Shown one piece after another: positions 1,168 through 16,135 of a stretch of 16,370 nucleotides of DNA. Every line of letters starts with the position of its first letter. Position 1 is the stretch's first letter. The notes beneath the pieces were generated by a model. It was given only the letters and a program-made list of their open reading frames with translations. It made no database searches and was not told where the DNA came from. The DNA is taken from UHGV virus genome UHGV-1639282; one strand, written 5' to 3'. The DNA comes from a virus. The position numbers were made by a program, and so were the translations under genes.

Positions 1168-1527
1168 TCACCCTTTCTTCATCAACTCGCGTTTAATTTC
1201 ATCGGTACGCATCGTGACATCGGCAGCTGTGATCGCCTCGTTAAGTTTCACGATGTCCTCGATTTCCTGCGGTGTCTTCTCCGCAAGATGGAAAATAGCA
1301 GCACGAATCACATCAGAGCGGGTGAATTTCTCGAAGCGAGGGATGAACTTCATCATCTCCAGCAGTTCGAAGTATTCGTCCTCCAGTGACATTGTGCGGC
1401 TTTTAATTTTCTCTTTGCCACGAGTCGGGCGTCCCTGTGGTCTGACTGGTTGGCGCAAAGGAGTTGTGTTCTTAGCCGGTGCATCAGGCTCTTTGCGCTT
1501 TGCTAGGTCACCCATTTTCATGGACAT
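1168..1527 (-). CDS. Small basic protein (119 aa), possible ParG-like partner of the ParA-like ATPase
   Basis: Start ATG overlaps the upstream gene's stop (TAATG at 1525-1529). The N-terminal ~45 residues are Lys/Arg/Pro-rich and look disordered (KRKEPDAPAKNTTPLRQPVRPQGRPTRGKEKIKSR). The C-terminal part (KFTRSDVIRAAIFHLAEK) looks like a strand-helix unit. The function is inferred from gene context only. Confidence 0.45.
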   Translation of the reverse strand: MSMKMGDLAKRKEPDAPAKNTTPLRQPVRPQGRPTRGKEKIKSRTMSLEDEYFELLEMMKFIPRFEKFTRSDVIRAAIFHLAEKTPQEIEDIVKLNEAITAADVTMRTDEIKRELMKKG

Positions 1528-2195
1528 TATTCTTCTTCCTCCAGACTCAACAGATAATCTACAAATTCTTCAAACTCGGCTTCCGCCTTTTTGTCGCGCT
1601 CGCTACCGGTCATTTCAAAGATAGAACGACCAGACTCTTCCGCATCATCATAGACGTTGCGGTTATATAGATTGACTGGCGCAGACTCGATGCCAAACGT
1701 CTCAACAATCTCTTTAGCCGCCAAAATGCGAGACACTTGTGATGGCAAAGCCGGGCACTGGTTCATGACCGCGCGGACCTTCACTTTATCGTTCACATTA
1801 CGAACATTGTCGATAATAGGATCGATGTCACGCAGAGATTTCAAATCACGACGCTTAGGACGAAGCGGGATAATGATAACGTCGGCCATCAGCATCGCTT
1901 GTCGCTGAATTTCGGAGTCAAAGCCACCAGCATCTACCACTACATACTCAGCTCTACCCTGAAGCGATTTTAGGTGCTTAATGATGTCATCCTGAACGTA
2001 TGCAAAAGGAATCAGCTCAAGGTCTTCGTTCTGTCGACGGTCTTCACACCAGCTTGTTGTCGTGCGCTGAATATCTATATCAGTGATATAAACCTTCTTC
2101 TTCTTTTTGACTTTCAGGCAAACGGCAATTTGCTGGGCAACAGTGGATTTGCCAGGCCCGCCCTTTGTGCCGCCAACCACAAAGATCTTGGTCAT
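1527..2195 (-). CDS. ParA/Soj/MinD-family ATPase with deviant Walker A (222 aa)
   Basis: N-terminus MTKIFVVGGTKGGPGKSTVAQQIA contains the deviant Walker A KGGxGK[ST]. A VVVDAGG motif follows, and the size matches small type-Ib partition ATPases. The protein ends in an acidic tail (LSLEEEE). ATG at 2195-2193 with AAGGGA ~9 nt upstream. Confidence 0.8.
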   Translation of the reverse strand: MTKIFVVGGTKGGPGKSTVAQQIAVCLKVKKKKKVYITDIDIQRTTTSWCEDRRQNEDLELIPFAYVQDDIIKHLKSLQGRAEYVVVDAGGFDSEIQRQAMLMADVIIIPLRPKRRDLKSLRDIDPIIDNVRNVNDKVKVRAVMNQCPALPSQVSRILAAKEIVETFGIESAPVNLYNRNVYDDAEESGRSIFEMTGSERDKKAEAEFEEFVDYLLSLEEEE

Positions 2196-2514: not shown

Positions 2515-2784
2515 ATGTCCGCACTGAAAAAGCAGCGCATCGATTTGAGATTAACCGATGACGATAAAAGCATCATCGAGGAAGCTGCCGCAATGTCTAA
2601 CCAGAGCATTACCCAGTTCATGGTTAGCAGTGCATCCGAACGTGCCGTGAAGGTGATAGAGCAACACCGTAGACTGGTTCTAAGTGAAGAGTCCTGGAAT
2701 CTGGTTATGGACGCTATAAGCAATCCTCCGGCACCGAACGACAAGCTGAAACGAGCTGCCAATCGTCTGAAAAGCATGGAGTAA
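2515..2784 (+). CDS. ataR: DUF1778-type RHH antitoxin (AtaR/TacA family)
   Basis: 89 aa: MSALKKQRIDLRLTDDDKSIIEEAAAMSNQSITQFMVSSASERAVKVIEQHRRLVLSEESW. It closely resembles AtaR/TacA sequences as I recall them, and it sits 7 nt upstream of a GNAT toxin gene. ATG with AGGGGG SD. Confidence 0.88.
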   Translation: MSALKKQRIDLRLTDDDKSIIEEAAAMSNQSITQFMVSSASERAVKVIEQHRRLVLSEESWNLVMDAISNPPAPNDKLKRAANRLKSME

Positions 2785-2791
2785 TTTACTC

Positions 2792-3313
2792 GTGAGCAAT
2801 ACGACGATCGAGATTTTCTCTGGAGAGAACGATTATGATCTAAACGGTTTTGATTGCGGCGAAGAGTCACTAAACGCATTTTTGACCAACCACTTAAAAA
2901 GACAGCATGAAGGAAAAATTCTTCGCGCTTATGTGCTTTGCACTAAAGAAGAAATACCAAAGGTATTAGGTTATTACACTTTGTCAGGCAGCTGCTTTGA
3001 GAAAGAAACCTTACCTTCAAAGAGTCAGCAAAAGAAAGTGCCTTATCGGAATGTCCCAAGTATCACTTTAGGCAGACTGGCTTTGGACAAATCTCTTCAA
3101 GGTCATGGGCTTGGCTCAATGCTTGTAACACATGCAATGCGCGTTGTGTACAATGCATCTCTTGCTGTAGGCATTCATGGACTTTTCGTTGAGGCGTTAA
3201 ATGACAAAGCCAAGGCGTTTTATAAAAGTTTAGGCTTTATCCAGCTGGTTGGTAACAACGAGCGTTCTTTGTTCTATCCTACAAAATCTATCGAAAAATT
3301 GTTCGAAGAATAA
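2792..3313 (+). CDS. ataT: GNAT-family acetyltransferase toxin (AtaT/TacT family, aminoacyl-tRNA acetylating)
   Basis: 173 aa, GTG start with GGAG upstream. Contains the GNAT core LQGHGLGSMLVTHAMRVVYNASLAVGIHGLFVEALNDKAKAFYKSLGF and the N-terminal DYDLNGFDCGEESLNAFL segment typical of AtaT/TacT. Classic antitoxin-then-toxin order. Confidence 0.88.
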   Translation: MSNTTIEIFSGENDYDLNGFDCGEESLNAFLTNHLKRQHEGKILRAYVLCTKEEIPKVLGYYTLSGSCFEKETLPSKSQQKKVPYRNVPSITLGRLALDKSLQGHGLGSMLVTHAMRVVYNASLAVGIHGLFVEALNDKAKAFYKSLGFIQLVGNNERSLFYPTKSIEKLFEE

Positions 3314-3316
3314 TGT

Positions 3317-3338
3317 GTTCCCCTCATTTGAGGGGAAC
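3317..3338. terminator. GC-rich hairpin (GTTCCCCTCA-TT-TGAGGGGAAC) between convergent ataT and o-spanin stops
   Basis: 10-bp perfect inverted repeat, 4 nt after the ataT stop (3311-3313) and 8 nt before the o-spanin stop (3346-3348). Flanking T-runs are short on both sides, so efficiency is uncertain. Plausibly a bidirectional terminator. Confidence 0.45.
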
Positions 3339-3345
3339 TTCGACA

Positions 3346-3561
3346 TCACCAACCACAAACCCTCTCTCCCATCGTATTGTGAAAAAGGATTTGGCGTTCG
3401 GTTTCTTCAGTCATTACATCATTATTGCTGATATAGATAGGCTCAGCCCCATCGCAGAACAACACGCTGGCTGTTTGTGGTTTAATGACGCACCCACTTA
3501 TCATACAACTCACGATGAACGGCAGAAGCATCTTTCTGACGTATTTTACTGCTCGTCTCAT
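3346..3561 (-). CDS. Putative o-spanin (Rz1-like outer-membrane lipoprotein), overlapped architecture
   Basis: N-terminus MRRAVKYVRKMLLPFIVSCMISGC has a basic n-region, a hydrophobic core and a lipobox-like ISGC. It is a short protein with additional Cys residues. It starts inside the 3' part of the i-spanin gene in another frame and extends beyond it. Confidence 0.5.
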   Translation of the reverse strand: MRRAVKYVRKMLLPFIVSCMISGCVIKPQTASVLFCDGAEPIYISNNDVMTEETERQILFHNTMGERVCGW

Positions 3562-3733
3562 TCACCACTTTCACTGTGTTTTGAAGTCGTTTTCTGTCTT
3601 CCTGTTTTGCCTTCTCTTCCATTGCTCGTCGCGCCGCATTCCCGCCCATCGTGTAAGCGCCGACAAGAACGAAAAGAACGGCAGCCAGCGTAATCAAAGC
3701 AACTTTTAGCTTTGTCATCAGGCTGCCTAGCAT
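3482..3733 (-). CDS. Putative i-spanin (Rz-like): N-terminal TM helix plus charged helical periplasmic domain
   Basis: 83 aa with TM segment LKVALITLAAVLFVLVGAYTM followed by a charged helical region (RRAMEEKAKQEDRKRLQ). The ATG is 1 nt after the stop of the upstream hydrolase-like gene. It is short for an Rz protein, so the call is tentative. Confidence 0.5.
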   Translation of the reverse strand: MLGSLMTKLKVALITLAAVLFVLVGAYTMGGNAARRAMEEKAKQEDRKRLQNTVKVVNETSSKIRQKDASAVHRELYDKWVRH

Positions 3734-3734
3734 A

Positions 3735-4427
3735 TTAGACCATCCCTTTCTGGTGTTTTCTTACCTGCGACCAGGCAATGAATCCTGCCACAACAATAGT
3801 GGCAATACCGAAGATGATGCGTACTGTATCCCCGCTAGAGATATGACCTTGTGCTTTATCCATAGCAGCGGAAACCTGCGGCATAACATCGGCCAGCTGA
3901 GCCAGACCAATACCTGCTGTAACAGTTGCGCCTGCGGTTTCTTTAGTTACAGGAACAGCCTTCACGGTTTTCACCGGCTTAACAACGCCAGCTCGACGCA
4001 GACCTTCCTCAATAACTTCTGCCGCATACCAGGTGTTCAGCGTTTTTAGCGGGCCTCGGCCATTCTCGTGGCGAATGATTGCCTCAACCAAAGGTCGAAG
4101 GATGTCGTAATCATGCAGATCGATGATCATGTCTGCGGTTACACCAACGGCTTTAGACACCTCATTAATGTAGGCGTCAGTATTGTTTTCATTCGGCGGT
4201 GCCCAGCGTTCAATAACTTCACGAATGGTATCGATACTTGTGCCGTCTTTTGCGCGACGTTTATCGTGGTAGGTAATTAGAGTCACCGCCAGCGCACGAA
4301 TCCCCCAAACAGGGTCTTTAAACGTGCAAAAGCGCGGTTCGTCTGGATTCGCAACCAGACCTTGCCACGGTGATCCTTTATCAAGATTACCGGGGTTATT
4401 ATTACGAATGCCTCTCGGGGTCTTCAT
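3735..4427 (-). CDS. Putative endolysin-like protein with C-terminal transmembrane anchor (230 aa from ATG 4427; the ORF track's 4454 start is GTG)
   Basis: Starts MKTPRGIRNNNPGNL with a strong SD (CAGGAGA) 8-9 nt upstream of the ATG at 4427-4425. The C-terminus has a Lys/Val/Thr-rich linker and a hydrophobic helix IIFGIATIVVAGFIAWS. The N-terminal motif is reminiscent of phage lytic-enzyme families, but I cannot confirm the family without a search. The lysis role is inferred mainly from the adjacent spanin pair. Confidence 0.45.
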   Translation of the reverse strand: MKTPRGIRNNNPGNLDKGSPWQGLVANPDEPRFCTFKDPVWGIRALAVTLITYHDKRRAKDGTSIDTIREVIERWAPPNENNTDAYINEVSKAVGVTADMIIDLHDYDILRPLVEAIIRHENGRGPLKTLNTWYAAEVIEEGLRRAGVVKPVKTVKAVPVTKETAGATVTAGIGLAQLADVMPQVSAAMDKAQGHISSGDTVRIIFGIATIVVAGFIAWSQVRKHQKGMV

Positions 4428-4440
4428 CCTTGATCTCCTG

Positions 4441-4764
4441 TTATTGCAGTCCACTTTTTACGCCATACGCGGCTAACCCCAAAAGCAGTGCGGTAATAAT
4501 GAACGACGTTATTTTAGAAACAATGCCGCCAAAGAACCCACTTGAGATGGAATCTAACCGGTTAAGGAGTTTGTCCAGATTGGAGTGTTGAATACTATGT
4601 TGCGCCGGGGTCATATCACCAAAGTAGGTTTTCAGCTGATCATTGACCTCCTGGCCAATTTCTTCACGTAGCTCTTTACCTAATTTGCCAACAACCTCCC
4701 GAGCAACGATCGCGGCAATACGCTCAACTTGCTCTGTTGTAACGCCCGCCATCTCGTTCGACAT
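4441..4764 (-). CDS. Small membrane protein, possible holin or lysis regulator (107 aa from the ATG at 4764, which has a GGAGGA SD)
   Basis: The ORF track starts at 4776, but the in-frame ATG at 4764-4762 has GGAGGA 6 nt upstream. There is a soluble ~85-aa N-terminal region and a single C-terminal TM helix (ITSFIITALLLGLAAYGV). Its position immediately upstream of the hydrolase-like gene suggests a holin role, but the topology is atypical. Confidence 0.4.
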   Translation of the reverse strand: MSNEMAGVTTEQVERIAAIVAREVVGKLGKELREEIGQEVNDQLKTYFGDMTPAQHSIQHSNLDKLLNRLDSISSGFFGGIVSKITSFIITALLLGLAAYGVKSGLQ

Positions 4765-5086
4765 GTTTTCCTCCATGAAAAGTCAAATCGGGATGGCGGA
4801 TTTATATCACATTTCACCCTTTTGTTGTAGGTGTGTACTTACCTATCATTCAGCATTGCAACCGATTGATGAGAAAGCACCTACTCCAACCCATCGCCAG
4901 TTATAGATGCTACACGCTTTGTATAAGGTATAGTCGTTCACTTTTTTAACAGCATATATGGGTATGACTGTCTCCTGTCCACCAATGATAGCTTCACCAT
5001 AACATATAGGTGTCGGCAATTTCTGGCAGCCAGTAAGAGAGAGAACAACAGCTATTGTTAGAAATAATCTTTACATCATTTACTCA

Positions 5087-5695
5087 TCAGTTATACAGAT
5101 TTCTATTTATTACCGGTACTCTGCCATTTACGCTAAAACTATGGCCGCCATTAAGTTGGTTTACGAATATCGAGCTAACAGTATTTCCATATGCCGCATA
5201 TCCATAAACCATTGTCATGGCTCCGCCCGGTACTGGAACAGCGGACACATTCGCATATGTTGGGATTATCGCTGGAGGGTAATCAAAAACATGCTCTCCA
5301 GAGCTGTTCCACTCCGTATTATTAAGAAAGGTAAATGAAAGTGGGATATTTGCCGTATTATAGATTTCCTCCCCTTGTGCATTGAAAAAACTCATGCCCC
5401 AAGTTTCTTTTTTGGCTATACCTTTCGAAAATACGTATATCGTGGCACTAGAGTCGCTACCCCGACCTCCGAAACTGTAAATCACCTGGTTGTTACGCAC
5501 TATTCTGTTGGCTATTAATGAAACAGCTTTCGAATAGACAACAAAAATAATCGGTGAACGATCTGGAGATATTTTGGTGTTAAACTCTGTCCCGCCGGAC
5601 AAAGAAACAACCTGCTTTCTCTGAAAAACGATAGGAGACAAAGAAGGAGACATCCAGACCTTCCCGTCAGATCGATATATCTTGCTTCCGTACAT
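5087..5695 (-). CDS. Hypothetical protein (202 aa), Ser/Gly/Asn/Tyr-rich, no signal peptide recognised
   Basis: Complete ORF with ATG at 5695-5693 overlapping the stop of the upstream ORF (TAATG). Composition suggests a beta-rich fold. No family recognised. GC looks somewhat lower than the tail genes. Confidence 0.55.
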   Translation of the reverse strand: MYGSKIYRSDGKVWMSPSLSPIVFQRKQVVSLSGGTEFNTKISPDRSPIIFVVYSKAVSLIANRIVRNNQVIYSFGGRGSDSSATIYVFSKGIAKKETWGMSFFNAQGEEIYNTANIPLSFTFLNNTEWNSSGEHVFDYPPAIIPTYANVSAVPVPGGAMTMVYGYAAYGNTVSSIFVNQLNGGHSFSVNGRVPVINRNLYN

Positions 5696-6641: not shown

Positions 6642-9600
6642 TTAAATACTTCCCGCGTTATACCATGTACCATTGATACAATACTGCACCGGCCTTGCCT
6701 GAGTTGTATCAATAAGTTCGTCCTTATTTGAGTTAATTGAGGCAGTAACAACATAACCAGATTTATCGTTCCATCCAGGACCATTCCATGTTTGCACAGA
6801 CGATTTTGTACCTAATCGAATACCTGTAATAAATCGTGAATTACATTCTGCTTTGGTATATGCCCCAACATCTCCCGCAGATGGTTTGCGTGTTGTAGTA
6901 TAAAATTCCGACCAGTCGGCTTCAAAACCATAACCGTCACGCGCAGAACGATAATAAATACCGCCGTTCTTATAATTCACGCGGAACTGTACAGCAGGGC
7001 AGCTCCCCGTATTCATATTGAAGTGGAGGATTAATGTCGATGCTCCACTGATATCTGCATCATAAACACCGCTATTCCAGTTCCAGCCAACAGCTTTATC
7101 ATTTGCAACCCTGCTTCCTGTTTGCCCTAAAGCAAATGCAGGCTGCTGGTTTTTCGTGTTGTAGTCTCGTCGCCAGCCAGGAGCATAAGCATCACCATGA
7201 TTAATATAAGTGAATTGTGCATTAGTAGTTCCGCCACCGCTGGAAGTGCTCGGGGTGGTTACACGGATGGTCATGGCACCTTTATTACCCATAACCTCAA
7301 TAACGCAACCAGCAAGGTGAATAAGTCCACATCCGGTGTCAGTAATAATTTTATTATTGCCGTATGACCATGAGCATTTACACATCCAGTATGGATGATT
7401 GAAGGCCCACTGAGATTCCAGCCATTCAATAAATTGCGCCGTCGTCCAGTTTCCTGCACCTGTGCTAATAGAGCCATGAAAAGAGCGGCAAGCACCTATT
7501 GTTTGCGTAAATTTATCTTTGTTTGGAATATCTGCGCCGTTCTGGTTTTTCTGTAATGCTCCTGCGGCTAATTCTACAGTTTGCTCAAGATTTAAATCTG
7601 CCGCCGTTAGCTCAATATTTTTAGAACCGTCAAACGACACCCCATTTATAGTTCTAGCGGTTTGTAACTTGGTCGCTGTAGCCGCGTTACCGGATGTATT
7701 CTGATTACCCGCAACGTTAACACCAGGTAAATTAATATTCGCAGTGCCATCGAAGCTAACACCACCGATGGTTCTTGCTGTCGCAAGTTTTGTCGCGGTA
7801 GCAGCATTCCCCGTGGTGTTCTGGTTACCAGCAATGTTTACACCCGGCAGGTTGATATTGGCGGAGCCATCGAATGACACGCCGCCTATTGTGCGTGCTG
7901 TTTGCAGTTTTGTTGCAGTTGCAGCATTACCGTTCAAACTACCATTGATGCCGCCAGTAACATTGAGTCCATTACCAATGGACACAGCACCGCTGGTATT
8001 ATTAATTGTAATAGGTCGCAAACCGTTCCATGAACCTAATGTGTCTCCTGATGCTGTTAGCATGAAATATGTGTTCGATCCATCATTACGGATAAAGAAC
8101 CCAAAGCTACCGTAAGCAATGCGGAAACCATTTGCATATTTTGAAATGATCTCGCCAGAAGATGTCAAACCTCCAGATAATGTACCACCGGTAAGAGGTA
8201 ATGCACCGACATCAGCCGCAGTAGGCTTGTTTTTAGTGTTATAAGAACGACGCCAGCCTGGCGCATAATCACTCCCATTGTACACATAAATAAATTCCGC
8301 ATTATTAACACCACCATGACCTGATGTTGTTGTCGTTGTAACACGAATAGTGTAGTGGCTTGTTGACTTATTACTAAACACCTCAATCACGGAACCAGAT
8401 AGATCGATCCTACCGCAACCAGTGTCGTCTATATAATTATTGTTGGCGTAAGCCCATGAGCACCGTGCAATCCAATATTTGTTTGAAAATGCACCCTGAT
8501 TATTTAGCCAAGTTATAAATTGAGCAGTCGTAAATGGCGTTCCGTTACCACTATTTAACCATCCAGCGGCAGCGGTTGGCGCGTTTATATCAGCCGGCTG
8601 AGGCATAAATCCAGTCGTGTAAACCTGCTCCCAACCACTTTCAAAACCATAGCCATCGCGAGATGAACGATAAAACAACCCACCATTTTTATAGTGAGCC
8701 TTAATTTGAAGCGTACGGCAACTACCTACACCAGTATAAAAGTTGGCAAGAATATAACTGTCGCCCGTTCTAGTTACATTATAAGCACCAGATTCAGCAT
8801 TCCACGGCACGCCGCCATCAGCATCAGCATATGACCCTGTTGCTCTTCTTGCGAAAGCGGCAACATGCGCGGCGGTTAAAGTGATATCAGTAGAGCCATC
8901 AAATGGAACACCGGATATTTTTCTTGCAGTCTGAAGTTTCGTAGCTGTATCAGAGTTCCCCTTAACCCCTTTTGGAGAATTAAGTGGTGTATTGATCGTC
9001 ACTTCACCTGTTGCGTTATTTACTGCAAATGGTCGAAGACCGTTCCAGCCACCGTACTGGTCGCCTTTATCAGTCATGAGCAAGTAAGTATTTGCTCCAT
9101 CATTTCGCCATATGACACCGTAATCGCCAGCAATCATCCTTAACGCATTCTGACTACGGACAATAACTTCATCATTAGCGTAAACCTTATTACCGCTAAT
9201 ATCCGCATTTGTGAGGAGTGCGTGCGAACTATAGAATCCTCTACCGTTGGAGAAATCAAGTATAGTATCAGCGTCCACGCATTCTGTTCTAGGGTCTGTA
9301 GCGCCCCATTTGTAAGTTGATTGCCCGATAACATAATCGGCAGATGGTACAACAACAGATAAGCCTTCTTCTACATATACAGCAATAGGAAACGCTTCAC
9401 CTTCAACATAGAACACAGAACACAGATCATCCGCTTTTCTACCCATCATGATAGAATGAATAGCACGCTCATTTGCGTGATAGATATGAAACATTCCATA
9501 AGCATAATGTCCCCTGTCAGTCCAACCGCCAGGCATGACAAAACCATTGAACTCACAGTTGTTCATCCTATCATTGGCAGTCTTTGAACTTGTACTTATC

Positions 9601-11297
9601 GTCACCCTGGATGCTAATTCACTGCTGAATCCAGAAGAACGACGAATAACCACAGGGTAAAACTTACCAGCTTCAACTCCTGCGGGCGCATTCACTGTTG
9701 AATACTTCATTCCTCGTTTAGCGGCCATATCAGTCTTGCTGGCAGCATTAATGTTGCTCAGGAAGCGGCCCTTGTCTGGGATATCAGCGCCATTCTGATT
9801 CTTCGCCAATCGGCTATTCGCATTGTCATTGGCTGCTTTTACTGCCTTTGGCGTTGCCGCCAGCGTTTCAGACGTGCTGTTGGTCGCACTGCTGAGCTGT
9901 ACTATCCCCTTTTTCGTCGTGCTCGCATCCTCAAGCGCCACAGCGGATGCAATATCCTCTGCCCGTTTTGCCGCTGTCTCGGCGCGCGTTGCCGCGGATT
10001 CTGCCGTACTTTTGCTCTGTGCTGCCGCCGTCGCACTGCCAGCTGCCTCTGTCGCCTTCGTGGATGCCGTCGTGGCGCTGCCCTTCGCTGCTGACGCTTG
10101 TCTGGTCGCCTCATCTTTTGAAGCAGACGCAGATGATGCCGATGACGCCGCCGAACTGGCTGACGATGCGGCAGCCGTTTTTGAGGATTCTGCGCTGGTT
10201 TCCGACGCTTTCGCGTTCGTTTCGGATGTCTTCGCTGCGGAAGCAGACCTCGCTGCTGCGCTGGCCTGTTCAGTGGCTTCGCCAGCCTTCGTTGTGGCTG
10301 TTGAAGCAGACGATGCGGCGCTTTCTGCCGATTTTCCGGCGGCGGTGGCACTGGCTGAGGCCTGCCCGGCACTTGTTGACGCGGCACTGGCAGACGACGC
10401 AGCCGCTGTTTTTGAGCCTGCCGCAGCTGAGGCGCTCTGTCCCGCTGCCGTCTCAGAAGACTTAGCGTTCGTCTCGGACGTTTTTGCCGCCTTCGCGGAA
10501 TTTGCTGCCGCCGTTGCCGAGGAAGCTGCGCTACTGGCGCTCAAGGATGCGTTCGTTTCTGATGATTTCGCTGCCTCTTTTGAGGCCGCCGCATCCCGGG
10601 CTGAGGTGGCAGCTTCTGACGCTTTCGTGGTCGCGGTGGATGCAGAAGTGGCTGCTGATTGTTGTGACGCTGCGGCATTCGTTTCAGATTTTTTCGCAGC
10701 AGTTGCACTCGCACTTGCGGCACTTTGTGAGGATGCCGCATCGGATGCACTTTGAGACGCTTGAGAGGCTTTTTCTCCAGCGGTATTGGCGCTTTCTGCT
10801 GCTGCGGCAGCACTGGCCGCCGCCTCACGAGCTTTGTCGCCAGCAGCATCAATCGCGTCAGTGTTATTTTTATACCACTCAACGTTTTCGTTGTGCTCGT
10901 TGACGATCTGCATTAGCGGCTTAACGGTTACTTCTGTACCGTCTTCACGCTCGATTGTCACCTCATCCAGCGCAGTCAACCAACTGCGCATGGACTTGGA
11001 ATCAGCCGACATACGCGACATTAGCGCAGTAAAGCGCGCGCTAAACTGTGTTAAGTCGCCTTCATAGGTCGTAATGATTCGGCACGGAACCTCAGACTGA
11101 GTTTCGCCGGTATAAGGTTCTGAGAGAACAATGTTCGTATCACTGGTTACGCGCTTGATCTCATACAGCTTATTGTCGGGGCCAATGACGATCATCCCCG
11201 GCAACACACCATTAGCTGTTACGTTCCAGGCTGTCCCTGCCCCAACCAGAGTATTGCTACCCTGTGTAAATGTGATAGTACCTTCCCTGTACCACAT
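6642..11297 (-). CDS. Side tail fiber protein (Stf-like), 1551 aa, mosaic
   Basis: ATG with AAGGAG 8 nt upstream. Long Ala/Ser/Thr-rich shaft containing [24 protein letters not shown] and [42 protein letters not shown], which I recall as near-identical to lambda Stf. Phage tail fibre repeats ([29 protein letters not shown]) in four copies. Duplicated distal modules, followed by tfa. Confidence 0.9.
7590..7945 (-). repeat. Three tandem ~120-bp coding repeats (phage tail fibre repeat, ~40 aa each) inside stf; a fourth isolated copy near 8880-8960
   Basis: Protein repeats [40 protein letters not shown] x3 with matching DNA periodicity visible at 7600-7940. The isolated copy reads [29 protein letters not shown]. 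Boundaries are approximate. Confidence 0.6.
9950..10850 (-). repeat. Low-complexity GC-rich (GCN-codon) Ala/Ser/Thr-rich shaft-coding region of stf
   Basis: About 300 aa dominated by A/S/T with recurring KTSETNA/SASAA motifs. Its lack of stops in several frames produces the long spurious overlapping ORFs on both strands in the supplied track. Boundaries are approximate. Confidence 0.6.
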
Positions 11298-11390: not shown

Positions 11391-14300
11391 TCACAGACGG
11401 CCAATTCTTACTCGTAGGACGTTGTTATCGTCATAAACGTCAATCCGCTGACCATTTATAACCAATCGCCCATTGCCGCCGCTATTACCGTTGATCTCAA
11501 GCGTTCCATTTTTGCCGAACCGCCATCCAGATCTACCGCTAACAAAATTGGTAGATTGCAGATCGCCTACTTTTGCATTGGTGATTGTGCCATCCTTGAT
11601 ATACGCTCCATTCATATAGGCGATACTGTTTTCGATAACAAATGGCGTTGTGATCTTCCCGTTAACAGAGTTGACCAAACCAAACCTGTCCGCCTGAACC
11701 AAAAACTGAGATAGCCCAGTGGTGTCAATACCAAGCGCAATACCGGCAACATACTTCTGCCCTCCGCTCGTTGAAGTCTCCATTTTCAACGTCCACGCGG
11801 TTGATACTTTTTTGTTGGTATCAGCAATAGCTGTTGCCTGCTGTTGAATTGTCGCGGTATTTCCATCCACCTCTGCTTTCAGAGTATCGATTCGCCCACT
11901 CAGAGCATTATCTGCCTGCGTTCTCGCTGTCGTTTCAGTTGTTACCGCCGCGGAAATGTTGGCTGCCGTTTGAGACTCTAAGTTTGTGATTTGAGTCGCC
12001 AATGCAGCATCTTGCTCTGTACGCGTTTTCGTTTCGGTTGCTACAGCCGCTTTAATATCCTCTTTGTATTGAGAGGTCAGCTTGGTGATCTGAGACGACA
12101 ACGCCGAGTCAGCATCAGTTCGAGCCTGCGTTTCAACTGCAACGGCCGCACTAATATCTTTCGCTGTCTGTGCTTTTAAACTTGAAACCTCTTTTGTTAA
12201 AGCGGTATCACCATCTGCACGAGCCGTTGTTTCTCTGGCAAGAGACGCCTCGAGATCATTAGCTTTTGCTGTAAGAGACGTAATCTGGGTAGACAATGCA
12301 CTATCGGCATCAGTCCTTGCTTTTGTCTCTACAGCAACCGCTGCGGCAATATCAGTTCCGGTTTGTGCTCGCAGGCTGTTAATTTCTCGTGAGAGCGCCT
12401 GGTCAGCACTTGCTCTGGCCTCCTGCTCCTGAGTGATGGCAGCGGATATATCACCGTCAACCTTTGACTGAAGCTGGTTTATTTGTTTGGCTAACGCAGA
12501 GTCCCCGCTTGCTCGGGCCTCCTGCTCACTACGTATTGCAGCAGAAATATCATCATCAACCTTTGCCTGAAGTTGGGTGATCTGGCTTGCCAGAGCCGAA
12601 TCTTCCGTTGCTCGGGCTTCTTGCTCTTCCTTAATAGCTGCGACGATATCGTTGCTTACTTTCGACTCAAGCTGAGTGATCTGTGTCGTCAGAGCTTCAT
12701 CGGCAGATGTACGAGCCTCCTGCTCTGTACTAATCGCCGCGCTGATATCTCCTTCAAACTTAGATTGCAGCTGAGTGACACGCTTTGCCAACGCTTCATC
12801 GCCATCGGCACGAGCGGTGGACTCTTCCAGAATACTGGCCTTAATGTCTTCGCCAATTTCTACGCGAATTTCCTCAACCTTCGTGGCCATTGCAGACATA
12901 TCATCAGCAAAGGTTTTCTGTGTTGTTGCGATCTTCGCGTTATTGACCATCTGCTTGTGCTGGTCTTCATCTTGACGAAGAGCCAGGTCAATATTTGTTT
13001 TGGCTAACGCCTCAATGTTCGTAGTCAGTTCTGCACTGGTACGATCGACCTCTGCAACCGTCTTTTTCATTTCTTCAACGGCAGCGGAGCTTTCCTCTAC
13101 CGTTGACTGCAACACTTCCAGTTGTTTAGCGTTTGCAGCATCGCCTTCAACACGAGCCTCGCTTTCCTTAGCAATAAGAGCCGCCGCTTCATCTCTTGCA
13201 GCCTTTATTGCCTCGACTGTATTAGCGAGAGCTTTATCGTGTTCAGATACGGTGTTTTCGATTTCAACAATTGCAGCATCAGTAGCATCAATTTTTTCAA
13301 ACGCTTCATTGACCTTGTCGATCGTTGCCGAAACCTCACCTTTAAGCTCGGTTTGTGCGTTCTCCAAAGCATCGCTACGCTCGTTGAATTTTATTTCAAA
13401 ATCCGCGAGGTTATCGCTGAACTGCTTATCTAATTCAGCTATATCTTCCTTAACGTCGTTTACCGCCCCCTCCAAAGATTCGACGCTCTGGTTGATATGC
13501 TCATTTAACTCGTCAACTGCTTCTTGAGAGGCTTTGCTGTTGATGTCCTCAAGCAGAGCCTGACCAAGCTCGGAAGATGTAATTTTGCCAGTCAGGAACG
13601 ACAGTACATCGCGAGTTGTCGCCTCTGTACCCAAGTTTGAGTTCGGAGGACTTAACATACCTCGCTTGTTCGATGCTCGAACCCAGTAATACCACGTTTC
13701 GCTATCCCCAAGACCAGCATGTGTAAAGGTGGTGCTTGCAGACTCTGCGATCAGTTTCGCCGTATCCAGATTGTTGGTCTGGGATGCGTAAACATTAATG
13801 TGATCAAGGTCTACCGAATCTGGATTAACCCAATTCAGTATCACATTACGATAGTCTCCAACGGCCGTTAATGACGTTGGGGAATCCGGCGGTGTCATTG
13901 TGCCCAACACCTGATAAACGGCACTGATAATCTCTGTTTTTTTACCGTTGAATGAAACCGCATACAGCTGGAAGTCGTAGCGTCCATTCTCCGCGACATT
14001 AACGATTTCGTATTGCTCTTCGGTTACACGCGCCGATTGCCAGTTCGATACATTGTTTTCATCAGAACGTCGCCAACTGATCCAATACTCTGGAGATTTC
14101 CCTTCCCATGTTGCAGTCAGTTTTACTGACAGGTTGCCCGGGCTTGAGAGATAAGTCCCTTCAGTGATTTGCAGATTAGATGGCTTGGAGTAAGTTGGGT
14201 CCAATACCGTCGTATTCTGCGGGATCAGCGTTGCACCATTGTCGATTGCCTCATATTTAGACGGATTGTTCTCAACAGCGGTGATGTCAAAGCTACCCGG

Positions 14301-16118
14301 CGTTTCCCCCTGCGCGATGTTAACGATGCGAACGCGCATAGGTTCGAGGTCTGGTTCTGTAATAGTCCAGACGCCGTTCAAAACAGGCGTTTCAGCCGAA
14401 GACAGGGCTTTTGAAAACGTAACTTTTGTTATATTTTCGCCAGTTTCAAGAACATCGCGTTCAACGATTTTGCCTTCCTGATTCAGTATTCGAATAAAGC
14501 AGCCGCCTTTGGCTAACGACACAGGCGCATCGAGTGTGACGCTGTTTTTGGTAAACGCCACAATTCGACCTGAGTTACGTTTGCCTGCGCGATATTTGTT
14601 CTGAATCAGAACGGTTTCACCAGGCATCAGAAATGACGCGTCTAAGCCGGCAGTAAATGTAATTACATCCGACTCCATTCTGGCGGTATATAAAAGCCAC
14701 AAACCAACTCGGTGAGCCTGCCCTCGGCTTGTACAGCCAAATGCTACGACTTCTGTTTTACGCTCACCATAACGGCGCATTGCGTCCTGATCTTCGACGT
14801 ACTCGATGTTTTGCTTATAACCGTCCTCCTTGTTGTTGTAGGTTACGAGCGCAACGGATGGGCGATCTTTACGCGCAGAACCTTTATAGGTAAACAATCC
14901 ATCTTTGACGTTAGAGTTGGTAAACATCATTACCGGATCTGATGGGCTATCCTGCATGATGTTAACCATCCCACCAGCCCAAAACACCATGCCGCGGAAT
15001 GCTCCGGCAATATCCTGAATTAGCCGGTATGCGTCCTGTCGACTGGTGATCTGTGTATTGATTGCAAAGCGTTTCTCTTTGCCACCAAAGCCATCATCGA
15101 CCTCTTCGTCACAATATCGACCAATCTGGTACAACTGGCCAAGGTCAATCATAGATTCCGACACATACTGACCAAGGCCATATCGAGCATTGGTCAGCAA
15201 ATCAAAGAGAATCCACGCGGGGTTCGAAGAAGACAACAGCTTAAAAGTGCCATCCCATACACCATCATAAGTGTTGCTGGCCTCGTTGTAGTTTGACGGC
15301 ACGCGAATTTTTAATCCACGTACCAAATACGAACGAGATGGCATGGTGCTACCAAACTGCTCAGAATTAACCTTCAGACCCACCAGCACAGAGTTTGGGT
15401 AGTTCATCGGTGTATCTACAATCTCACCTATTGAGTCCACCCATGTATCGTTATAGAGATACTGGCTGCTGTTATCATCGGTAATACGGACCACACGAAC
15501 CTTGTATGCTCGTCCAGGCTTAGGCAGCTTCAGCTCATAGCTACGGTAATAAACGCCGGTCTTCTTTGCTGTTAGCTTAATGCCAACGCTTTTTTCACCT
15601 TCAGCGACCACATCTACAAATGTTGAGTCGCCATTTGCTATCTGGAACTTGTACTCAACAGTCGTACCGTTCGTGTCACCAGTTTTTTTATCTATGCTTC
15701 GCAAAGAAGGAAACTTCATGATGACACGAACCCGATCAGCTTCATCGTTATCGATTGAAACCGTTACATAATGTGTTTTTTTTAACTGGATATTGACGGA
15801 TTTAGGCGTTTCAACGAAATCAAAGCCAGACATTGGAGTCTGGTCTTGTGAACCGTCGCGAAAATCCCATGTGATTCCGCTGAAGTTGGAGGAACCGTCT
15901 TCATTTACAATCGGCAGATCGTCGATAAAAATAGATCTTGCGCCATTTACTAAGCCGCCAATTACCCCTTCCCCAAGAAGATCGAGGATAGCGGCCATTG
16001 CACGAGAATTTACGGTATCGTCGGCTTCAACCGGTGTACGGCTGGAGCTTTTGCTGCTTTTTTTACCACCCGCACCGGCAATAAACAGCGGTAGCTTTTT
16101 CTTCTTGAACTGTTCCAT
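11391..16118 (-). CDS. J-like tail tip / host specificity (central fiber) protein with extended coiled coil (~1575 aa from ATG 16118; the ORF track's 16124 start is TTG)
   Basis: The N-terminal ~650 aa carry lambda J-like motifs (AFGCTSRGQAHRVGLWLL, PAWILFDLLTNARYGLGQY) and the C-terminus has KYVAGIALGI...QFLVQADRFGL, also J-like. Between them is a ~600-aa alpha-helical region that includes ~10 tandem 33-aa repeats. The ATG at 16118-16116 has AAGGA upstream. Confidence 0.9.
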   Translation of the reverse strand: MEQFKKKKLPLFIAGAGGKKSSKSSSRTPVEADDTVNSRAMAAILDLLGEGVIGGLVNGARSIFIDDLPIVNEDGSSNFSGITWDFRDGSQDQTPMSGFDFVETPKSVNIQLKKTHYVTVSIDNDEADRVRVIMKFPSLRSIDKKTGDTNGTTVEYKFQIANGDSTFVDVVAEGEKSVGIKLTAKKTGVYYRSYELKLPKPGRAYKVRVVRITDDNSSQYLYNDTWVDSIGEIVDTPMNYPNSVLVGLKVNSEQFGSTMPSRSYLVRGLKIRVPSNYNEASNTYDGVWDGTFKLLSSSNPAWILFDLLTNARYGLGQYVSESMIDLGQLYQIGRYCDEEVDDGFGGKEKRFAINTQITSRQDAYRLIQDIAGAFRGMVFWAGGMVNIMQDSPSDPVMMFTNSNVKDGLFTYKGSARKDRPSVALVTYNNKEDGYKQNIEYVEDQDAMRRYGERKTEVVAFGCTSRGQAHRVGLWLLYTARMESDVITFTAGLDASFLMPGETVLIQNKYRAGKRNSGRIVAFTKNSVTLDAPVSLAKGGCFIRILNQEGKIVERDVLETGENITKVTFSKALSSAETPVLNGVWTITEPDLEPMRVRIVNIAQGETPGSFDITAVENNPSKYEAIDNGATLIPQNTTVLDPTYSKPSNLQITEGTYLSSPGNLSVKLTATWEGKSPEYWISWRRSDENNVSNWQSARVTEEQYEIVNVAENGRYDFQLYAVSFNGKKTEIISAVYQVLGTMTPPDSPTSLTAVGDYRNVILNWVNPDSVDLDHINVYASQTNNLDTAKLIAESASTTFTHAGLGDSETWYYWVRASNKRGMLSPPNSNLGTEATTRDVLSFLTGKITSSELGQALLEDINSKASQEAVDELNEHINQSVESLEGAVNDVKEDIAELDKQFSDNLADFEIKFNERSDALENAQTELKGEVSATIDKVNEAFEKIDATDAAIVEIENTVSEHDKALANTVEAIKAARDEAAALIAKESEARVEGDAANAKQLEVLQSTVEESSAAVEEMKKTVAEVDRTSAELTTNIEALAKTNIDLALRQDEDQHKQMVNNAKIATTQKTFADDMSAMATKVEEIRVEIGEDIKASILEESTARADGDEALAKRVTQLQSKFEGDISAAISTEQEARTSADEALTTQITQLESKVSNDIVAAIKEEQEARATEDSALASQITQLQAKVDDDISAAIRSEQEARASGDSALAKQINQLQSKVDGDISAAITQEQEARASADQALSREINSLRAQTGTDIAAAVAVETKARTDADSALSTQITSLTAKANDLEASLARETTARADGDTALTKEVSSLKAQTAKDISAAVAVETQARTDADSALSSQITKLTSQYKEDIKAAVATETKTRTEQDAALATQITNLESQTAANISAAVTTETTARTQADNALSGRIDTLKAEVDGNTATIQQQATAIADTNKKVSTAWTLKMETSTSGGQKYVAGIALGIDTTGLSQFLVQADRFGLVNSVNGKITTPFVIENSIAYMNGAYIKDGTITNAKVGDLQSTNFVSGRSGWRFGKNGTLEINGNSGGNGRLVINGQRIDVYDDNNVLRVRIGRL
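11870..12870 (-). repeat. About ten imperfect tandem 99-bp repeats encoding 33-aa coiled-coil units (consensus approx. DISAAIxxEQEARxxADxALxxQITQLQSKVxx) within the J-like gene
   Basis: The protein-level repeat is obvious in the translation. A DNA periodicity of ~99 bp is seen in recurring motifs such as GCTCGGGCCTCCTGCTC at ~12415, ~12513, ~12612 and ~12711. Boundaries are approximate. Confidence 0.65.
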
Positions 16119-16135
16119 GTTCAAAAAATCCTTGT

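Follow-up and report, generated by a model that had tools for sequence, protein, structure and literature searches.

A probable native lysis operon of an SSU5-like phage-plasmid, with an Enc34/M4Lys-type endolysin and an uncharacterised small membrane protein

The viral DNA analysed here (UHGV virus genome UHGV-1639282, 16,370 nucleotides, hereafter the window) very probably stems from an SSU5-like phage-plasmid of Escherichia coli and carries its native late lysis operon. Four co-oriented and tightly spaced lysis genes occupy the minus strand from 4764 to 3346 and encode a small membrane protein of 107 aa, an endolysin of 230 aa, an i-spanin and an o-spanin. This four-gene operon is of the ordinary SSU5 type and as such already known, and the small upstream partner is the sole part of the cassette that is still uncharacterised.

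The lysis operon of SSU5-like elements

The original prediction had described a lysis cassette of two genes between 3735 and 4764. The lysis assignment is borne out by matches to PHROG and PDB entries and by the annotation of Escherichia phage Cyrano and Salmonella phage SSU5, and both open reading frames stand, but the i-spanin and o-spanin genes and a terminator-like hairpin just downstream had been overlooked. At the DNA level the locus is 99.6% identical to Cyrano and 81% identical to SSU5. The cassettes of SSU5 (SSU5_026-030) and Cyrano (CYRAN_22-25) agree with the present one in gene content, gene order and starts, and both records annotate the genes as holin, endolysin, Rz and Rz1. Function was assigned there by annotation alone, and our literature search turned up no experiments on the lysis genes of either phage.

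The ATG codons at 4427 and 4764, which had been proposed as better starts because of their Shine-Dalgarno (SD) sequences, are exactly those used in the Cyrano and SSU5 records, with coding sequences of 693 nt for the endolysin and 324 nt for the small protein. The endolysin ATG at 4427 has AGGAG ahead of it at 4439-4435, and its product opens with MKTPRGIRNNNPGNL. All 36 of the 36 aligned homologues begin within a few residues of MKTPRGIRNNNPGN, and the alternative GTG at 4454 lies within the upstream gene and has no SD. For the small protein, GGAGG at 4774-4770 stands ahead of the ATG at 4764, and the alternative ATG at 4776 has no SD.

Like the SSU5 group, with which it shares synteny and DNA identity, the element occurs on plasmids, of ∼95-115 kb. 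Matches were found in 609 plasmid records, and 249 of the 5,426 complete E. coli genomes in RefSeq carry the cassette, all 250 matches being on plasmids. A scan of 3200-5200 detected no sigma-70-like promoter, as is expected for a late operon, so that the scan is uninformative on this point.

In SSU5 the gene order is terminase, head, tail, fibre, lysis, partition and replication, and Enc34 and Chi likewise have their tail genes ahead of the lysis module (PMC8943055). The location of the cassette had been taken to point to a different genome architecture or a mosaic. The synteny comparison contradicts this: SSU5, Chi and Enc34 natively carry their lysis genes behind the tail genes, and the position of the cassette is therefore no sign of a mosaic. 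Between the fibre and the lysis genes, the window and SSU5 carry a Cor gene, a gene for a phrog_425 protein and one for an 84-aa protein, a block that Cyrano lacks, and this short Cor/membrane-protein block is the only part of the fibre-to-lysis stretch that varies. In the window the Cor gene has a stop at codon 3.

The variability of the block that separates the tail fibre from the cassette would fit a cassette that came in as a foreign insertion (a mosaic) or as cargo where the tail-fibre region ends, with the real lysis genes elsewhere. The same reading could draw on the endolysin and o-spanin held in common with unrelated Chi-like phages, which indicates that the module moved horizontally at some time. 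We regard such an insertion as scarcely credible, since position and order are constant in all SSU5-like elements examined and also in Chi and Enc34, and since SSU5 has no other annotated lysis genes (the annotation of the first 100 kb of its 103-kb genome lists no second endolysin or holin).

The endolysin and its catalytic domain

The endolysin gene (3735..4427, minus strand; 230 codons plus stop) encodes an all-helical, lysozyme-related catalytic domain of the PHA02564 type (residues 1-150; 3978..4427), followed by a C-terminal membrane module (residues 151-230; 3738..3977). Residues 3-151 match the Enc34 endolysin's catalytic domain (ORF39 residues 1-169; crystal structure PDB 7Q47) with a phmmer E value of 6.8e-54, and the protein matches phrog_873 ('endolysin') at 3e-88. 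AlphaFold models residues 1-150 mostly with a pLDDT above 90, and Foldseek superimposes this model on 7Q47 with a target-normalised TM score of 0.91, an rmsd of 1.4 Å and 58% identity. The fold thus agrees with the hydrolase-like character that had been predicted for the protein. W75, Y86 and E121 are invariant across 37 aligned sequences and correspond to Trp79, Tyr95 and Glu131 of Enc34 (paper numbering, one off from the ORF). Over the full length, including the C-terminal membrane module, the protein is 55-59% identical to the Chi, Enc34 and M4Lys endolysins (59% to Chi gp38, 58% to Enc34 ORF39), 94% identical to SSU5_027 and 100% identical to that of Cyrano. Homology over the full length, membrane module included, extends to the iEPS5 endolysin, and M4Lys itself shares 97-99% identity with the enzymes of Chi and iEPS5.

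By its sequence, the 230-aa protein is a peptidoglycan hydrolase of the described Enc34/M4Lys family, with the catalytic fold, the Glu/Trp/Tyr signature, the C-terminal TM module and the place next to spanin genes that mark this class. Enc34 ORF39, M4Lys of phage BSPM4, Chi gp38 and the Siskin endolysin have the same PHA02564-type all-helical domain with Glu, Trp and Tyr and a homologous C-terminal module. Endolysin genes of the Enc34 type (Enc34 is a Hafnia phage) likewise follow the tail genes, with the gene of a small membrane protein on one side and overlapped spanin genes on the other. By analogy with the ∼55-59% identical homologues M4Lys and Enc34 ORF39, for which activity has been shown (PMC7143992; PMC8943055), the catalytic domain would cut murein, mainly as an N-acetylglucosaminidase. 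The Enc34 paper limits the architecture to Chi-like and related viruses (PMC8943055), and SSU5-like phage-plasmids are mentioned neither in the papers on Enc34-type endolysins nor in the Enc34 supplement.

The history of the catalytic domain allows another reading, in which the protein would be a virion-associated (ejection) lysin and not a lysis enzyme. The first label given to this domain family was 'virion protein', and the domain is found inside tape-measure and internal core proteins. Correspondingly, PHROG matches include a tail injection transglycosylase, a tape measure and head proteins, tblastn finds the T7-like internal core protein gp16 and 'virion protein' entries, and the core protein Gp29 (PDB 9vvp) matches with an E value of 6e-22. 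All of these matches, however, span the catalytic domain alone (residues ∼4-146), while the full protein of ∼230 aa with its C-terminal TMD is encoded between spanins on one side and a small membrane protein on the other. Close homologues of it lyse cells from within, and SSU5 has no other annotated endolysin. A virion lysin is thus very improbable, and the protein is treated in the following as the endolysin of the operon.

The C-terminal membrane module

The module begins with a variable linker and continues with the motif PVTKET (159-164), a weak helix (∼164-190), an SSG loop, a TM segment (199-222; 3762-3833) and a basic RKHQK tail. The TM segment has a Kyte-Doolittle mean of 2.07 over 19 residues and is followed by VRKHQKGMV, while the preceding Gly/Ala/Ser/Thr-rich helix is weakly hydrophobic (1.11). 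AlphaFold confidence is low across residues 159-201, with pLDDT values below 50 at 159-183 and 191-201. No hydrophobic segment was found at the N-terminus, where the most hydrophobic 19-residue window within the first 40 residues averages -0.45. Hydropathy thus upholds the predicted C-terminal hydrophobic helix, opposite to the N-terminal signal-anchor-release (SAR) type, and it is plausible that the endolysin is membrane-tethered through its C-terminus. Such anchoring had been called uncommon, which is true among characterised endolysins, but the class is both documented and abundant: 182 phage records match over at least 80% of the endolysin length, and to these come the 249 E. coli genomes. 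C-terminal-TMD endolysins have been reported for Siskin in 2019 (PMC6498227), for M4Lys in 2020 (PMC7143992) and for Enc34 in 2022 (PMC8943055), and the C-terminal membrane domain and the holin- and Sec-free lysis of the Enc34/M4Lys class were published in these years.

Per segment, the module equals the catalytic domain in conservation. Its alignment with the C-terminal parts of Chi gp38 and Enc34 ORF39 has no large gaps and many invariant columns, PVTKET is near-invariant, and SSG is conserved in the loop before the TM. This degree of conservation argues for specific interactions and not for a generic anchor. When residues 149-230 were searched alone, by a word-indexed search and then by phmmer over 1.84 billion representatives, whole matches occurred just at the C-terminus of endolysins of the same type with ∼227-239 aa. 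The remaining matches were fragments, junction ORFs and low-complexity giants, and an origin from a stand-alone holin is unsupported. The likeness to C-terminal sorting signals (GlyGly-CTERM, PEP-CTERM, LPXTG) is superficial, with no NCBIfam model at E<=10. A Tat-dependent tail-anchor was also rejected, because the endolysin has neither a twin-arginine signal nor an N-terminal hydrophobic region.

What the module may do can be judged from its homologues. M4Lys alone lyses E. coli and is not blocked by azide, truncation of its TMD abolishes lysis, and the TMD by itself is bacteriostatic (PMC7143992). Enc34 ORF39 is toxic at full length and not toxic without its C-terminus, though the authors caution that holin-independent lysis may be an over-expression artefact (PMC8943055). 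From these two cases, the module of the SSU5-type endolysin would bring the enzyme to the inner membrane and would be indispensable for reaching the wall from inside. By the same analogy, the full-length protein would lyse or poison E. coli alone and Sec-independently, and a truncated form would be harmless. Topologies predicted within the family differ, with N-in/C-in and two TMDs for Siskin (PMC6498227) and N-out/C-in and one TMD for M4Lys (PMC7143992). The basic RKHQK tail would remain cytoplasmic by the positive-inside rule.

Two other groups of membrane-associated endolysins invite comparison. SAR endolysins (P1 Lyz, phage 21 R, Mu gp22) are likewise membrane-associated and have a weakly hydrophobic Gly/Ala/Ser/Thr-rich helix. 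In contrast to them, the hydrophobic elements of the SSU5-type endolysin are C-terminal and the weakly hydrophobic N-terminal signal-anchor is absent, and no route is known that exports an N-terminal domain through a C-terminal signal. Acidovorax phage AP1 encodes LysAP, termed a 'C-terminal SAR endolysin', of ∼227 aa with a TM at 194-216 near the C-terminus and basic residues after it. This TM is required for membrane localisation and lysis, and a small single-TM partner is encoded upstream (PMC8879335). However, the catalytic domain of LysAP is a GH24 lysozyme and not of the PHA02564 type, and its authors report an involvement of Sec, unlike for M4Lys (PMC8879335). Since the module search did not retrieve the C-terminal region of LysAP, we regard the likeness as an analogy.

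Spanins and terminator-like hairpin

The gene of the Rz-like i-spanin (83 aa; 3482..3733, minus strand) has its ATG 1 nt past the endolysin stop, which suggests translational coupling. The protein matches phrog_1026 ('Rz-like spanin') at 7e-25 and has an N-terminal TM within residues 1-34; with Chi gp39 and Enc34 ORF40 it has 26% identity, the layout and a few motifs in common. The Rz1-like o-spanin is a lipoprotein (3346..3561, minus strand) with the lipobox ISGC and Cys24, and matches phrog_1275 at 1.3e-24. Its gene shares 80 nt with the 3' end of the i-spanin gene, read in a different frame, so the pair has all features of two-component spanins of the 'overlapped' architecture, and a spanin survey groups the SSU5 o-spanin with the Chi/Enc34 family (PMC6139136). 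Once the endolysin has become active, the spanins would disrupt the outer membrane. Directly past the o-spanin stop, a consensus match marks a terminator-like hairpin (3317..3338, minus strand) with a 9-bp stem and 6 G-C pairs, and convergent toxin-antitoxin genes lie beyond. Two terminator-like sites were seen where 2.0 are expected by chance, and the placement of the hairpin is thus suggestive, not proof.

The small membrane protein upstream of the endolysin

The first gene of the cassette (4441..4764, minus strand), called 'putative holin' in SSU5 and Cyrano, encodes the 107-aa protein. Its sole hydrophobic segment covers residues ∼76-106 with a peak window at 81-99, and AlphaFold predicts a helix at 82-104. 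These data agree with the single C-terminal TM of the original prediction. The tail after the TM (YGVKSGLQ) has at most ∼8 residues. Residues 1-75 are helical, with 12 acidic and 8 basic residues and two conserved His. The AlphaFold model of the whole protein, with four predicted helices, has a mean pLDDT of 46 and is too poor for a fold search.

The protein matches phrog_5093 ('unknown function') at 2e-68, and no match was obtained to Pfam, NCBIfam or the PHROG holin families. It is confined to SSU5-like elements (12 phage records; 30 protein clusters at ≥59% identity), with 99% identity to Cyrano and 95% to SSU5. The partners of related endolysins are different proteins: in Enc34 and Chi the small upstream protein is non-homologous and has its TM at the N-terminus, whereas the TM is C-terminal here. 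Homology to Chi gp37 and to a 103-aa partner from Alcaligenaceae was rejected (hhalign probability 0.3% in either case), and there is no homology to Enc34 ORF38 either.

A holin role of the 107-aa protein is putative and rests on gene position. The protein is small, has at least one TMD and is encoded next to the endolysin, as holins are. It lacks the highly charged hydrophilic C-terminal tail that is typical of holins; the dual start that many holins have is not apparent, as homologues do not keep the second Met (M5), and we found nothing on tail-anchored holins in the literature. As part of the native operon, the C-terminal helix would tether the protein to the membrane, with the acidic domain of ∼75 aa in the cytoplasm, an orientation suggested by the absence of a signal sequence. 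From there the protein would set or tune the activation time of the membrane-bound endolysin, either through holes or depolarisation, as a holin or pinholin, or through the endolysin's membrane module.

The first of these routes is tentative but quite possible. The protein would then be a true hole-forming, tail-anchored holin of unusual topology (N-in, C-out, with next to nothing in the periplasm), and the endolysin would wait on the cytoplasmic side as an N-in/C-in hairpin until the trigger, reaching the wall via lesions or after depolarisation. In favour of this, the gene stands first in the cassette, has a strong SD and ends 13 nt ahead of the endolysin start, and the single-TM protein is the sole candidate membrane protein besides the spanins. 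It is conserved in every element that has the SSU5-type endolysin, one from Providencia among them. The N-in/C-in prediction for the Siskin endolysin (PMC6498227) would suit a waiting hairpin, and other members of the endolysin family adjoin bona fide holins (phrog_920, LydA-type PF16083). This has to be weighed against the missing holin HMM match and charged C-terminal domain, and against the homologous M4Lys, which lyses without its partner (PMC7143992). Furthermore, a single TM followed by no more than ∼8 residues is not known to form holes.

That the endolysin is self-sufficient appears somewhat unlikely to us, yet several observations speak for it. Its own C-terminal module would be a membrane-active, holin-like domain, and the 107-aa protein a tethered cytoplasmic regulator (antiholin- or releasin-like) that would delay or license the endolysin via its cytoplasmic domain or its TM. 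The behaviour of M4Lys and of its bacteriostatic TMD agrees with this, and the gene upstream of M4Lys in BSPM4 is dispensable, with co-expression slightly delaying lysis (PMC7143992). The conservation of the module, at the level of the catalytic domain and with its near-invariant PVTKET, points in the same direction. Moreover, the layout of the 107-aa protein is that of the Mu gp25 releasin (DUF2730) in mirror image: both have ∼100 aa, one TM with virtually nothing on the periplasmic side, an acidic domain (∼73-75 aa, two His) in the cytoplasm, and a gene that adjoins that of a membrane-associated endolysin. The anchor of Mu gp25 is N-terminal (N-out/C-in), whereas that of the 107-aa protein is at the opposite end, and the 107-aa gene lies upstream of the endolysin gene, the Mu gp25 gene downstream. 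Small, unrelated proteins that likewise consist of a tethered cytoplasmic domain are found repeatedly upstream of endolysins of this type, a recurrence that leans on ORF calls made here and a simple hydropathy threshold. Against a self-sufficient endolysin stand the lack of any DUF2730 match to the 107-aa protein at E<=1 and the caution of the Enc34 authors on over-expression (PMC8943055).

The bolder claim that the 107-aa protein is a new tail-anchored cytoplasmic lysis regulator and not a hole-forming holin, akin to an antiholin or the Mu releasin and in control of an endolysin with a membrane-active C-terminal module, we consider unlikely. If true, a tethered cytoplasmic protein combined with a C-terminal-TMD endolysin would be a general strategy distinct from holin/endolysin and pinholin/SAR systems. 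The orientation of the anchor would then be interchangeable, N-terminal in Chi and Enc34 and C-terminal in SSU5 and several unrelated prophage versions.

Implications for SSU5-like phage-plasmids

In the SSU5-like plasmids of the 249 E. coli genomes, the lysis genes go under the label 'hypothetical protein', as a model for the SSU5-type endolysin is missing from both Pfam and NCBIfam. These genes can now be named with confidence, which is a routine case with a practical gain for annotation. The cassette also bears on the route to the cell wall that is taken by an endolysin whose membrane domain is C-terminal and which has no export signal. Since it occurs in E. coli and has a different partner protein, the SSU5-type cassette would be a modest addition, not a discovery, as a convenient second system for this question of endolysin export.

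Organization of the lysis operon

Four co-oriented ORFs extend from 4764 to 3346 on the minus strand of the window, encoding a small membrane protein of 107 aa (4441-4764), an endolysin of 230 aa (3735-4427), an i-spanin (Rz) of 83 aa (3482-3733) and an o-spanin (Rz1) of 71 aa (3346-3561), the last of which shares 80 nt with the 83-aa gene in a different frame. The original prediction had located the first two ORFs correctly and was also right in moving their starts to the ATG codons at 4427 and 4764. AGGAG (4439-4435) lies inside the 13-nt spacer between the stop of the 107-aa gene and the endolysin start, GGAGG (4774-4770) is found upstream of ATG 4764, and both genes match the CDS lengths of 693 and 324 nt in Escherichia phage Cyrano and Salmonella phage SSU5. 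No Shine-Dalgarno sequence is present at GTG 4454 and ATG 4776, the starts chosen by a mechanical ORF finder. The lysis function proposed for this cassette holds, but the cassette had been ended at 3735, overlooking the two downstream genes that complete it. The 83-aa gene begins 1 nt past the endolysin stop, and the spanins would carry out the final step of lysis. A G+C-rich 9-bp hairpin (3338-3317, minus strand) follows the last stop of the operon; no promoter was found upstream of it.

The SSU5 o-spanin was previously placed in one group with those of phages Chi and Enc34 by a spanin survey (PMC6139136). The 'Rz1 spanin' CDS of Cyrano (120 nt; window 3346-3465) would begin at V33, past the lipobox Cys24, and is probably a mis-annotation, as its product would be without the lipoprotein signal.

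The endolysin belongs to a described class

The 230-aa protein matches PHROG 873 'endolysin' (3e-88). Residues 1-150 of its AlphaFold model (37 homologues) have pLDDT values mostly >90, and the model superposes on the catalytic-domain crystal structure of Enc34 endolysin ORF39 (PDB 7Q47) with a target-normalised TM-score of 0.91 and an rmsd of 1.4 Å. E121, W75 and Y86, the equivalents of Enc34 Glu131, Trp79 and Tyr95 highlighted by the Enc34 authors, are invariant throughout the alignment of the 37 homologues. Because of this superposition and the three invariant residues, the hydrolase-like character proposed for the protein is upheld as a peptidoglycan-hydrolase fold. The Enc34 domain is related to GH73 and GH23 (Cernooka et al., PMC8943055). 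M4Lys, the endolysin of Salmonella phage BSPM4, which is 97-99% identical to the enzymes of Chi and iEPS5, breaks down murein as a glucosaminidase and, apparently, also as an endopeptidase (Bai et al., PMC7143992). By analogy to these homologues, the window endolysin is expected to cleave murein.

The hydrophobic C-termini predicted for the 230-aa and 107-aa proteins were found by hydropathy. In the endolysin alignment, a variable linker (residues 151-158) and a near-invariant PVTKET (159-164) lead into a weakly hydrophobic helix (~164-190; best 19-residue Kyte-Doolittle mean 1.11; 58% Gly/Ala/Ser/Thr), which is followed by a loop with a conserved SSG, a strong TM (199-222; Kyte-Doolittle 2.07) and the C-terminal tail RKHQKGMV. 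This whole region aligns to the C-termini of Chi gp38 and Enc34 ORF39 (the full-length alignment gives 59% and 58% identity, and tblastn 54-55% with 99% of the length covered), and a per-segment comparison gave the same conservation as for the catalytic domain. A phmmer search with residues 149-230 against 1.84 billion representative proteins recovered the module as the C-terminal part of Enc34/M4Lys-type endolysins (~227-239 aa) and nowhere else apart from fragments and junction ORFs. Since it is confined to one endolysin type, the module is specific and family-bound, and neither a generic anchor nor a captured stand-alone holin; the latter was rejected as no stand-alone version occurs among these representatives. 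None of the sorting-signal models searched matches the C-terminus, and no Tat-type signal was found in the endolysin.

Among the database proteins matching this module, P0001, P0010, P0011, P0164, P0171 and P0079 have unrelated N-terminal sequences fused to the last 50-80 residues of the endolysin, and one such ORF carries a ParB domain (PF02195). Such ORFs point to lysis cassettes that were rearranged or disrupted in some SSU5-like plasmids, unless they are artefacts of assembly or gene calling.

The C-terminal anchor had been regarded as uncommon, but it defines a class that is already described (PMC6498227, PMC7143992, PMC8943055). For Siskin, a new class of endolysins was proposed that carry two C-terminal TMDs in N-in/C-in orientation, together with a holin of 'class IV' whose TMD is N-terminal (PMC6498227). 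M4Lys alone lyses E. coli, which azide does not block; lysis is lost without the last 13 residues or without the TMD, and the TMD by itself is bacteriostatic (PMC7143992). The Enc34 endolysin is toxic in its full-length form and harmless when truncated, and its authors, who confined the architecture to Chi-like and related phages, noted no known route for export of an N-terminal domain via a C-terminal signal (PMC8943055). AP1 LysAP is an analogous case (PMC8879335), although its catalytic domain is GH24, unlike that of the window endolysin. Neither the Enc34 paper (PMC8943055) nor its supplement mentions SSU5, and we found no experimental literature on SSU5 lysis genes; tying this class explicitly to SSU5-like phage-plasmids extends it slightly and adds no new kind.

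According to the positive-inside rule, the basic tail of the endolysin should stay in the cytoplasm. If the weak first helix inserts as well, the protein would form an N-in/C-in hairpin that keeps the catalytic domain in the cytoplasm, while a first helix that stays out of the membrane would require this domain to be outside. AlphaFold confidence is low for residues 159-201. Transferred from the homologues, membrane association would depend on the TMD, and the wall would be reached from within.

The small upstream membrane protein

The 107-aa protein begins with a helical domain of ~75 aa that contains 12 acidic and 8 basic residues and two near-invariant His. Its sole hydrophobic segment spans ~76-106 (peak window at 81-99; helix at 82-104 in AlphaFold), leaving no more than ~8 residues beyond it; AlphaFold gave no usable model of the protein. 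Since it has no signal sequence, it should be tail-anchored with the N-domain in the cytoplasm. Its family (phrog_5093, 'unknown function') occurs solely in SSU5-like elements, one of them from Providencia. The holin models of Pfam, NCBIfam and PHROGs gave no match, a search for remote homology found none, and position is the only basis of its 'holin' label. It is not homologous to the Chi/Enc34 partner, whose N-terminal TM and C-terminal coiled coil mirror its layout. The Mu releasin gp25 (PMC9239132) likewise has a cytoplasmic domain on one membrane helix, a likeness of form and not membership; no similarity to DUF2730 was detected.

Most likely, the 107-aa protein sets the timing of lysis. 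It could do so as a hole-forming or depolarising holin, for which its position speaks and which we consider a tentative option. A slightly less likely option is a non-holin regulator of a self-sufficient endolysin, in favour of which speaks that the ORF upstream of M4Lys is dispensable and delays lysis slightly (PMC7143992).

Partners were surveyed at 24 viral-contig loci with a full-length endolysin and at three more loci (L005-L007), based on our own ORF calls and a simple hydropathy threshold. The SSU5-type partner occurs at L005, L010, L012, L014, L018 and L019, and a soluble N-domain with a single C-terminal TM is found in at least four further mutually unrelated small proteins (L007, L048/L056, L059 with a DUF6127 protein and, marginally, L026). 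Chi-type partners, anchored by their N-terminus (L024, L027, L028, L031), were also seen, as were holins of the classical two-TM kind (phrog_920; L025, L029) and LydA-type holins accompanied by a second spanin pair (L006, L022, L023); several loci have no clear partner. By these calls, the SSU5-type, other C-terminal-TM and Chi-type partners have in common a cytoplasmic domain of ~65-80 aa on a single helix. This layout, with a helical domain and the TM at one end, recurs in at least five mutually unrelated versions.

Chi gp37 (L003, 2150-2488) and PHROG 7686, a putative holin with an N-terminal TM, carry the label 'Rz-like spanin', probably a mis-annotation. At L006 (1411-3583), a prophage-like metagenome contig, as at L022 and L023, two spanin pairs flank this endolysin type. 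Upstream of the endolysin, L006 has a LysB/LysC-like pair and the LydA-type holin, and downstream follow the endolysin's own i-spanin (83 aa) and o-spanin (67 aa), which looks as if two lysis modules were joined. In the Providencia SSU5-like element (L005, 3231-4225), two added genes of 103 and 227 aa lie between endolysin and i-spanin; therefore the cassette can be split.

Genome position and neighboring genes

The DNA of the lysis region is 99.6% identical to Cyrano and 81% to SSU5, and its genes carry the annotations holin, endolysin, Rz and Rz1 in either record. Its flanks, both typical of SSU5-like phage-plasmids, comprise a GNAT toxin-antitoxin pair and ParA in one direction and, in the other, the fibre assembly protein, the tail fibre and a J-like tail tip protein. 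The location behind the tail fibres had been taken as a sign of a different architecture or a mosaic. However, SSU5 has the order terminase, head, tail, fibre, Cor block, lysis, partition, replication, and in Enc34 and Chi the lysis module directly follows the tail genes, as the Enc34 paper states in words (PMC8943055). Because this order is shared and the annotation of SSU5, covering the first 100 kb of its 103 kb, shows neither a second endolysin nor a second holin, the position is the family norm and no evidence for a mosaic. The short fibre-to-lysis block is variable and absent from Cyrano, whose match stops at window 4847.

In this block, a Cor superinfection-exclusion lipoprotein gene (4846-5030, minus; phrog_1119, 1.9e-18) opens with ATG ATG TAA, a stop at codon 3 where the near-identical element L010 has MMKRLFLTIAVVLSLTGC, while lipobox and remainder are intact; the stop reflects a sequencing error or else a nonsense mutation of recent date that would make the gene a pseudogene. 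The tail fibre (6642-11297, minus; 1,551 aa) contains a low-complexity stretch of >300 residues (positions ~150-480) in which Ala, Ser and Thr are abundant, and two copies of a C-terminal-type module, each with NGG(L/I)(F/Y)YRS(S/A)RDGYGFE. Cyrano has a shorter fibre (4,026 nt), and its similarity to the window stops ahead of the fibre gene. Imperfect coiled-coil repeats (DISAAI..EQEAR.SAD.AL..QI.QL.SKV) occupy about residues 1000-1400 of the J-like protein (11391-16124, minus; 1,577 aa); the SSU5 tail protein is shorter (4,158 nt).

Convergent with the lysis operon on the plus strand (2515-3313) are an antitoxin-like ORF (89 aa) and a GNAT acetyltransferase toxin (173 aa), annotated in Cyrano as 'KacT acetyltransferase-type toxin'. 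They have the hairpin at 3317-3338 in common with the operon, and it may terminate transcription in both directions; SSU5 carries other genes here. ParA (222 aa) and an overlapping 119-aa ORF, labelled 'RelE/ParE putative toxin' in Cyrano, occupy 1168-2195 (minus). The position right behind ParA suggests that the latter may instead be the centromere-binding partition partner.

The lysis operon of this common phage-plasmid is thus a known one, with an endolysin from a class already in the literature; of the original prediction the function stands, not the significance. Matches were found in 609 plasmid records, mostly non-mobilizable E. coli plasmids of ~95-115 kb, and 249 of 5,426 complete E. 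coli genomes contain the cassette, every time plasmid-borne. The genes are labelled 'hypothetical protein' there because Pfam and NCBIfam, both searched, hold no model for the catalytic domain. What is gained are better names for hundreds of 'hypothetical' plasmid genes, and an uncharacterised tail-anchored partner of interest.
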